Below are positions 40,719-40,892 of a stretch of DNA of 64,000 nucleotides, piece by piece. The notes under the pieces were generated by a model, which was given only the letters and a program-made list of their open reading frames with translations, had not been told where the DNA came from and ran no database searches. Each line of letters opens with the position of its first letter. The first letter of the stretch is position 1. The stretch is from Dictyostelium discoideum (lineage: Eukaryota). A program made the translations under genes and the position numbers. The DNA lies in NCBI GenBank assembly GCA_000004695.1, contig CM000152.2, positions 5,952,001 to 6,016,000 of the forward strand, written 5' to 3'.

Positions 40719-40892
40719 ATGAATTTAATAGATTTAATATTAATGGCAATATACGTAATAGGAATATCCGGTTTAATTTTTAATAAAAATAATATTATTA
40801 ATATATTAATAATATCAGAATTAAACTTAAGAACATTAGGGATGTTATTTGTGTTATCTTTTATATATATATATATATATATTTATTATTAA
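40719..40892 (+). pseudogene. probable nuclear copy of mitochondrial nad4L (NADH dehydrogenase subunit 4L) N-terminal fragment (NUMT), truncated by a (TA)n tract
   Basis: 57-codon ORF MNLIDLILMAIYVIGISGLIFNKNNIINILIISELNLRTLGMLFVLSFIYIYIYIYY*: two-helix ND4L pattern (…G.SGLI.N…N.I..L…E…..G..F) comparable to ND4L of other organisms (e.g. human …[32 protein letters not shown]…); nad4L is mtDNA-encoded in Dictyostelium; sits 215 bp after rps11 stop with no introns or signal features of a nuclear gene. Confidence 0.45.

Follow-up and report, generated by a model that had tools for sequence, protein, structure and literature searches.

A 259-nt segment lying between rps11 and a Nudix hydrolase gene in the nuclear genome of Dictyostelium discoideum is almost certainly a nuclear copy of mitochondrial DNA (NUMT) that spans the rps2/nad4L boundary of the D. 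discoideum mitochondrial genome. The segment occupies positions 40598-40856 of the window, which is the whole stretch of DNA that was analysed (64,000 nucleotides). It is mitochondrial in origin and flanked by nuclear genes, it is present in two assemblies, and relatives carry the empty site. BLASTN aligned it to positions 2079-2337 of the D. discoideum mitochondrial contig L006 with 249 of 259 positions identical (96.1%), 0 gaps and an E value of 2e-120, and other dictyostelid mtDNAs are 78-83% identical over the same segment. The homology to mtDNA ends abruptly at both edges. A megablast search with the mitochondrial contigs L006, L001 and L005 as queries returned this segment as the sole match in the window.

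Extent and content of the mitochondrial segment

The features of the insert and its two neighbours are as follows.

40598-40856, plus strand: the NUMT proper, 259 nt colinear with mtDNA and comprising the rps2 3' end, the ATGA overlap and the nad4L 5' half
40598-40722, plus strand: rps2 fragment, the last 40 codons (frame from 40600) and the TGA stop at 40720-40722
40719-40856, plus strand: nad4L fragment, codons 1-46 of 98, with the changes I9M and G38R
40719-40892, plus strand: 57-codon ORF, made up of 46 mitochondrial codons, 11 nuclear-flank codons and TAA
39308-40503, plus strand: rps11/S17, the upstream neighbour, with exons at 39308-39322 and 40051-40503 and a 155-aa product, from reading of the sequence
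41046-41900 (end approximate), plus strand: Nudix hydrolase gene, the downstream neighbour, with its ATG at 41046 and at least two introns

The initial annotation, which started from the 57-codon ORF, proposed a probable NUMT and named a lack of significant similarity to mitochondrial nad4L as the outcome that would speak against it. With 96.1% of 259 nt identical to a D. discoideum mitochondrial contig, the similarity is highly significant and supports the proposal. The annotation recognized the nad4L-like piece correctly, however, its boundaries do not hold, as the insert covers 259 nt at 40598-40856 and not the 174 nt of the ORF. The rps2 part was missed, since the mitochondrial homology begins 121 nt 5' of the ORF, inside rps2. 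Additionally, the truncation was ascribed to a (TA)n tract, and the actual truncation is the insertion junction after codon 46.

The native 4-nt overlap between the rps2 stop and the nad4L start, ATGA, is intact at 40719-40722. The rps2 tail translates as RQEVTIFAEYYNKYTRMYKSFLKVMKKRAERINRSGKKEV in the window and as RQEATIFAEYYNKYTRMYKSFLNVMKKRADRTKRSGKKEV in L006, each followed by the stop. The protein encoded by codons 1-46 of the nad4L fragment is identical at 44 of 46 positions to D. discoideum mitochondrial Nad4L, and this includes the ISELNL motif that carries the glutamate of the second transmembrane helix (TM2).

Mitochondrial contigs used for comparison

Used as a query against the protein collection, the ORF picked up two 98-aa PF00420 proteins with 69-71% identity, and the contigs that encode them are metagenomic dictyostelid mitochondrial genomes (39-kb contigs) with the gene order rpl6 ... 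nad11-type, nad5, rps4, rps2, nad4L, followed by two Proton_antipo_M genes. The 90% cluster of one of these matches also holds KAM9954801.1 (P0006), a 229-aa fused rps2+nad4L model that is labelled D. discoideum and whose source is L006 (JBTAPF010000052.1, 22.5 kb). The gene order of L006 is rps4-rps2-nad4L-(two Proton_antipo_M genes)-cox3-...-cox1, and the contig contains an intact 98-aa nad4L and a cox1 with LAGLIDADG ORFs. Over the shared region (rps4, rps2, nad4L and the Proton_antipo_M genes) its order is that of the 39-kb metagenomic contigs, and by gene content and shared order L006 is genuine mtDNA. The rps2 gene (PF00318) lies directly 5' of nad4L in all of the mitochondrial contigs; the two genes overlap by 4 nt in L001-L004 and abut in L005.

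L006 belongs to the isolate assembly GCA_054859385.1 and is not AX4's own mtDNA, and the divergence figures given here refer to L006. AX4-type mtDNA was sought among the metagenome contigs with an exact 41-mer scan, which gave no match; a 20-mer scan picked out three contigs of ~40% GC that were rejected as chance matches with no further similarity.

Some irregularities were seen in the L006 record. Within L006:1482-2203 the rps2 homology changes frame near 2027-2039 in an A-rich run, which breaks the ORF ~59 codons before the stop, and this is either an assembly homopolymer error or a real frameshift. The KAM9954801.1 model (L006:1638-2496), annotated as a 'hypothetical protein', omits the first 12 codons of nad4L. 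Mitochondrial genes in GCA_054859385.1 are apparently annotated as nuclear, and the Proton_antipo_M pair is merged into a 1014-aa product.

The 57-codon ORF

The ORF runs from the ATG at 40719 to the TAA at 40890-40892 and encodes 57 aa on the plus strand, and its ORF-listing translation is the one given in the initial annotation. It starts 215 nt 3' of the rps11 stop codon (40501-40503), as had been stated. The nad4L likeness that was claimed for it is weak by protein profile. Searched against Pfam, the ORF matches PF00420 Oxidored_q2 with an E value of 0.0043 and 17.2 bits, under the 26.1-bit cut-off, and all nine of its nine PDB sequence matches are ND4L/NuoK proteins, with E values of 0.29-7 and a mostly common register. 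Because the profile and PDB searches stay under their thresholds, the question was decided by DNA comparison, and the match to L006 confirms the likeness. With 46 of 98 codons homologous and 17.2 bits against 26.1, the piece falls short of a full-length three-helix Nad4L (~98 aa).

The final 11 codons of the ORF (SFIYIYIYIYY) are nuclear flank and include the (TA)10 microsatellite. The ORF is open only through the youth of the copy and the chance read-through of these 11 nuclear codons. Its exact protein has no copy in a collection of 15 billion proteins, which does contain AX4 proteins, and no gene model is called over it in the independent assembly L010. The competing idea in the initial annotation, that the ORF might be the N-terminus of a longer nuclear gene, is not borne out, as the stop falls in T-rich spacer, L010 has no gene call there, and the segment is missing in six related genomes that retain both neighbours.

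Nuclear locus and neighbouring genes

The window represents nuclear DNA of AX4-type D. discoideum. The SET-domain ORF at 37444-38577 on the minus strand is identical to AX4 DDB_G0282599, XP_640148.1 (P0026). The order Nudix - rps11 - SET is conserved in all of the nuclear loci compared (seven syntenic nuclear assemblies), and the locus in L010 belongs to a 6.43-Mb chromosome record. The insert sits in the 542-nt spacer (40504-41045) between rps11 and the Nudix gene, 94 nt 3' of the rps11 stop and 189 nt 5' of the Nudix start. An orthologous 155-aa rps11 product with the domains PF16205 and PF00366 is encoded in L008, L009, L010, L015, L016 and L017, and an orthologous 199-aa Nudix product with PF00293 NUDIX is encoded in L007-L010 and L015-L017.

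The rps11 orthologue at L007:8119-9064 (D. cf. discoideum, GCA_054859235.1) is modelled as a 204-aa protein without a Pfam match, whereas the others are 155 aa and carry the S17 domains; the longer model is probably a gene-model error. The SET proteins are 377 and 379 aa in L015 and L016 and 378 aa in the window. On the minus strand at 41980-43716 the window has an LRR ORF (42523-43716) and a Ras-like ORF (41980-42429), which correspond to one 551-552-aa LRR+Ras protein in most of the orthologous loci and to two genes in L007.

Empty sites and lineage distribution

The spacer was compared between assemblies as the length from the rps11 TAA to the Nudix ATG.

Window, D. discoideum, AX4-type: 548 nt, insert present
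L010, D. discoideum (GCA_054883475.1): 548 nt, insert present
L015, D. discoideum (GCA_054859385.1, also the source of L006): 286 nt, insert absent
L016, D. discoideum (GCA_054859355.1): 282 nt, insert absent
L017, D. cf. discoideum: 244 nt, insert absent
L007, D. cf. discoideum (GCA_054859235.1): 241 nt, insert absent
L008, D. citrinum: 277 nt, insert absent
L009, D. firmibasis: 228 nt, insert absent

The insert is absent from the orthologous spacer in six of six of these relatives (L007, L008, L009, L015, L016 and L017), and both flanks are conserved. The flanks abut exactly in L007, where window positions 40559 and 40854 align to positions 8066 and 8065. The initial annotation was made from the window's sequence and needs correcting on this point, as the insert is specific to the AX4 lineage and not species-wide.

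L015 and L016 differ from the window by ~2.5% substitutions and ~100 indels over 8.8 kb (window 36000-45000). The NUMT differs from L006 at 10 of 259 positions, or 3.9% (95% CI 1.9-7.0%), which is not significantly different from the nuclear divergence (Fisher p = 0.23). Because the two divergences are similar, the data fit an insertion at or after the split of AX4 from L015 and L016. The simplest account is a single insertion that took place in the AX4 lineage once that lineage had separated from these two isolates. The age of the insert is bounded only by that split, and it is younger than the split and thus comparatively young. The divergence of L015 and L016 seems high for variation within a species and may reflect deep structure or cryptic taxa.

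Junctions and mechanism of insertion

Comparison of the filled allele with the empty alleles defines two junctions.

40589-40597, plus strand: 5' junction, ATATATAAC between conserved TTTATCAA and the insert
40854-40881, plus strand: 3' junction, TTA microhomology at 40854-40856, native nuclear TCTTTT, and (TA)10 at 40862-40881

The empty alleles of L015 and L016 read TTTATCAA, then TTATTATAATTTAATTA, then TCTTTTATATAT, with TCTTTT after TTATTATAATTTAATTA. The filled allele reads TTTATCAA, then ATATATAAC, then 259 nt of mtDNA that end in GTGTTA, then TCTTTT(TA)10. The mtDNA 5' of L006 position 2079 has no match to the window, and the 9-nt ATATATAAC is either a diverged remnant of the target or filler, so that the 5' junction is readable in more than one way. 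The number of target bases replaced is 5-17, depending on how ATATATAAC is read.

The 3' junction falls where mtDNA reads GTGTTA followed by GCATCC and the empty nuclear allele reads AATTA followed by TCTTTTATATAT. The insert ends in TTA, and these three bases, common to the mitochondrial and the empty nuclear sequence, form a microhomology. The (TA)10 tract at 40862-40881 starts 5 nt past the junction and is a native nuclear microsatellite. It is (TA)10 in the window and in L010 and (TA)3-4 in the insert-free alleles, and the tract is expanded in the lineage that gained the NUMT.

Microhomology and small target loss are expected of NUMT integration by non-homologous end joining. The most likely route, judged from the sequence of the two junctions, is that non-homologous end joining sealed a chromosomal double-strand break with an escaped piece of mtDNA. 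Such joining would account for the 3-nt microhomology on the 3' side and for the replacement of a few target bases on the 5' side.

Sequence changes in the nuclear copy

The 10 differences from L006 are divided equally between the two genes, with five in the rps2 tail, all non-synonymous, and five in nad4L, which comprise two non-synonymous (I9M and G38R) and three synonymous changes. These differences may mix decay after insertion with mitochondrial haplotype variation, as the reference is not AX4 mtDNA. When the nad4L changes are polarized with the outgroups L005, L001 and L002, four of the five prove to be derived in the NUMT and the fifth in L006; the five rps2-tail differences were left out of this polarization because the outgroup tails are too divergent to align. 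The G38R change places an arginine four residues past the conserved TM2 glutamate. Position 38 is Gly in five Dictyostelium-type sequences (L006, P0001, P0002, P0003 and P0007) and Val in Heterostelium and Cavenderia, and the change is consistent with relaxed constraint. Together, the changes against L006 amount to seven non-synonymous and three synonymous, a tally that would fit an absence of constraint, giving a dN/dS of ~0.55 on ten changes, which are too few to be informative.

Alternative explanations

An assembly artefact, in which a mitochondrial read or a chimeric clone was joined into the nuclear scaffold and the chromosome carries no insert, is extremely unlikely. Total-DNA libraries are rich in mtDNA, AT-rich spacers are difficult to assemble, and a 2010 survey gives only 0.175 kb of NUMT for the D. 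discoideum genome (PMC2820518), all of which would favour such an error. However, the 591-nt stretch at 40480-41070, which holds the whole spacer and the insert, matches exactly in L010 (CM142509.1, the 6.43-Mb chromosome), and an 8.6-kb alignment of L010 with the window is 99.56% identical, with 3 mismatches and 8 gaps. These differences outside the stretch mark L010 as a separate assembly. The copy also differs from mtDNA at 10 of 259 positions, its derived changes (four of the five that can be polarized) include the radical G38R, which is unlikely in a working nad4L, and the two junctions are clean, their flanks aligning to empty alleles. The initial annotation had raised chimerism as a concern, and the exact spacer in L010 together with the derived changes against mtDNA makes a chimeric join unlikely. 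There is next to no probability that the insert is ancestral, with later deletion in the other lineages, instead of a recent arrival in the AX4 lineage. AT-rich spacers often undergo deletion, and this spacer is indel-rich between strains, as shown by 56 and 44 gap openings in two L015 alignments of 4.7 and 4.2 kb. An ancestral insert would nevertheless require near-precise loss independently in D. firmibasis, D. citrinum, two D. cf. discoideum and two D. discoideum isolates, and identity of the copy to D. discoideum mtDNA is 96%, against 78-83% for other dictyostelid mtDNAs.

The recent NUMT in the AX4 lineage is, on its sequence, most likely an inert, non-functional pseudogene piece. It is very unlikely that it instead serves a function as a nuclear element, whether through expression of a 57-aa membrane peptide with two helices or as promoter or UTR sequence for the Nudix gene or rps11. 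The ATG and the frame are intact across 57 codons, and the insert fills about half of a short spacer that separates two expressed-type genes. Against this, the ORF is open by inheritance in a copy that is only ~4% diverged, and there is no sign of purifying selection (seven non-synonymous changes against three synonymous, on ten changes only). Both neighbours are kept without the insert in six related genomes, L010 has no gene call at this position, the exact protein is absent from the protein collection, and the copy holds only 46 of 98 nad4L codons and lacks a targeting sequence. Co-option of the young NUMT, as a 57-aa two-helix micropeptide or as a regulatory sequence that alters rps11 3'-end formation or Nudix promoter activity, is equally improbable. 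If it were true, it would mean gene birth from mitochondrial DNA, or a laboratory strain that differs from wild isolates in the regulation of rps11 or Nudix.

Comparison with known NUMTs and Nad4L

NUMTs are ubiquitous, and the insert is an ordinary, young member of this well-described class that is almost certainly inert and of small biological importance. The features by which a NUMT is recognized are all found here, namely similarity to mtDNA, a nuclear site, colinearity across genes, a real insertion and an empty site in relatives. Like the NUMTs described by Hazkani-Covo et al. in 2010 (PMC2820518) and by Hazkani-Covo and Martin in 2017 (PMC5570036), it is a short, non-coding-competent fragment that is colinear with mtDNA, it crosses a gene boundary, it occupies an intergenic site, and only some lineages carry it. 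The junction microhomology and small target loss are likewise typical of end-joining capture. The insert resembles mitochondrial nad4L and bacterial NuoK (PF00420), a complex I subunit, in codons 1-46 and in the ISELNL motif. It differs from them in having 46 of 98 codons and G38R, in being nuclear, in lacking a targeting sequence and in being absent in close relatives.

The two surveys give different pictures of the D. discoideum genome. The 2010 survey lists two BLAST hits with a total of 0.175 kb (PMC2820518, Table 1), and the 2017 survey reports 147 hits and 122-132 NUMTs with hardly any evidence of recent insertions (PMC5570036). The present insert differs from the D. discoideum NUMTs of the 2017 survey (PMC5570036) in that it is comparatively young, being at least 96% identical to mtDNA and missing from other isolates that carry the D. 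discoideum label. At 259 nt it alone exceeds the 2010 total (PMC2820518), though it is easily found by megablast, and the genome build or the filtering may be responsible for the mismatch. The papers searched, among them the main texts of both surveys, contain no individual description of the rps11-Nudix insert, and no publication about the new Dictyostelium assemblies or the rps11-Nudix locus turned up.

With its age bounded and its two junctions and empty site resolved, the insert shows that mtDNA still moves into the nucleus, here into a NUMT-poor genome. A simple PCR test could use the spacer length, 548 nt with the insert and roughly 280 nt without it, as a strain marker for the AX4-type lineage. 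The ORF at 40719-40892 should not be called a gene in annotation, and the nuclear copy could be picked up by rps2/nad4L primers or by read mapping in AX4.

A second NUMT candidate at window positions 12604-12751 was rejected. This T-rich spacer gave BLASTN matches to mitochondrial rps4 with E values of 6e-15 despite DUST being on, at 71-73% identity to rps4 of L005 and L001, and the match is one of poly-T/poly-A low complexity against a lysine-rich coding stretch. Hundreds of other unfiltered BLASTN matches to mtDNA were dismissed as the same AT-rich noise. Compositional false positives like that at 12604-12751 could inflate NUMT counts in AT-rich genomes.
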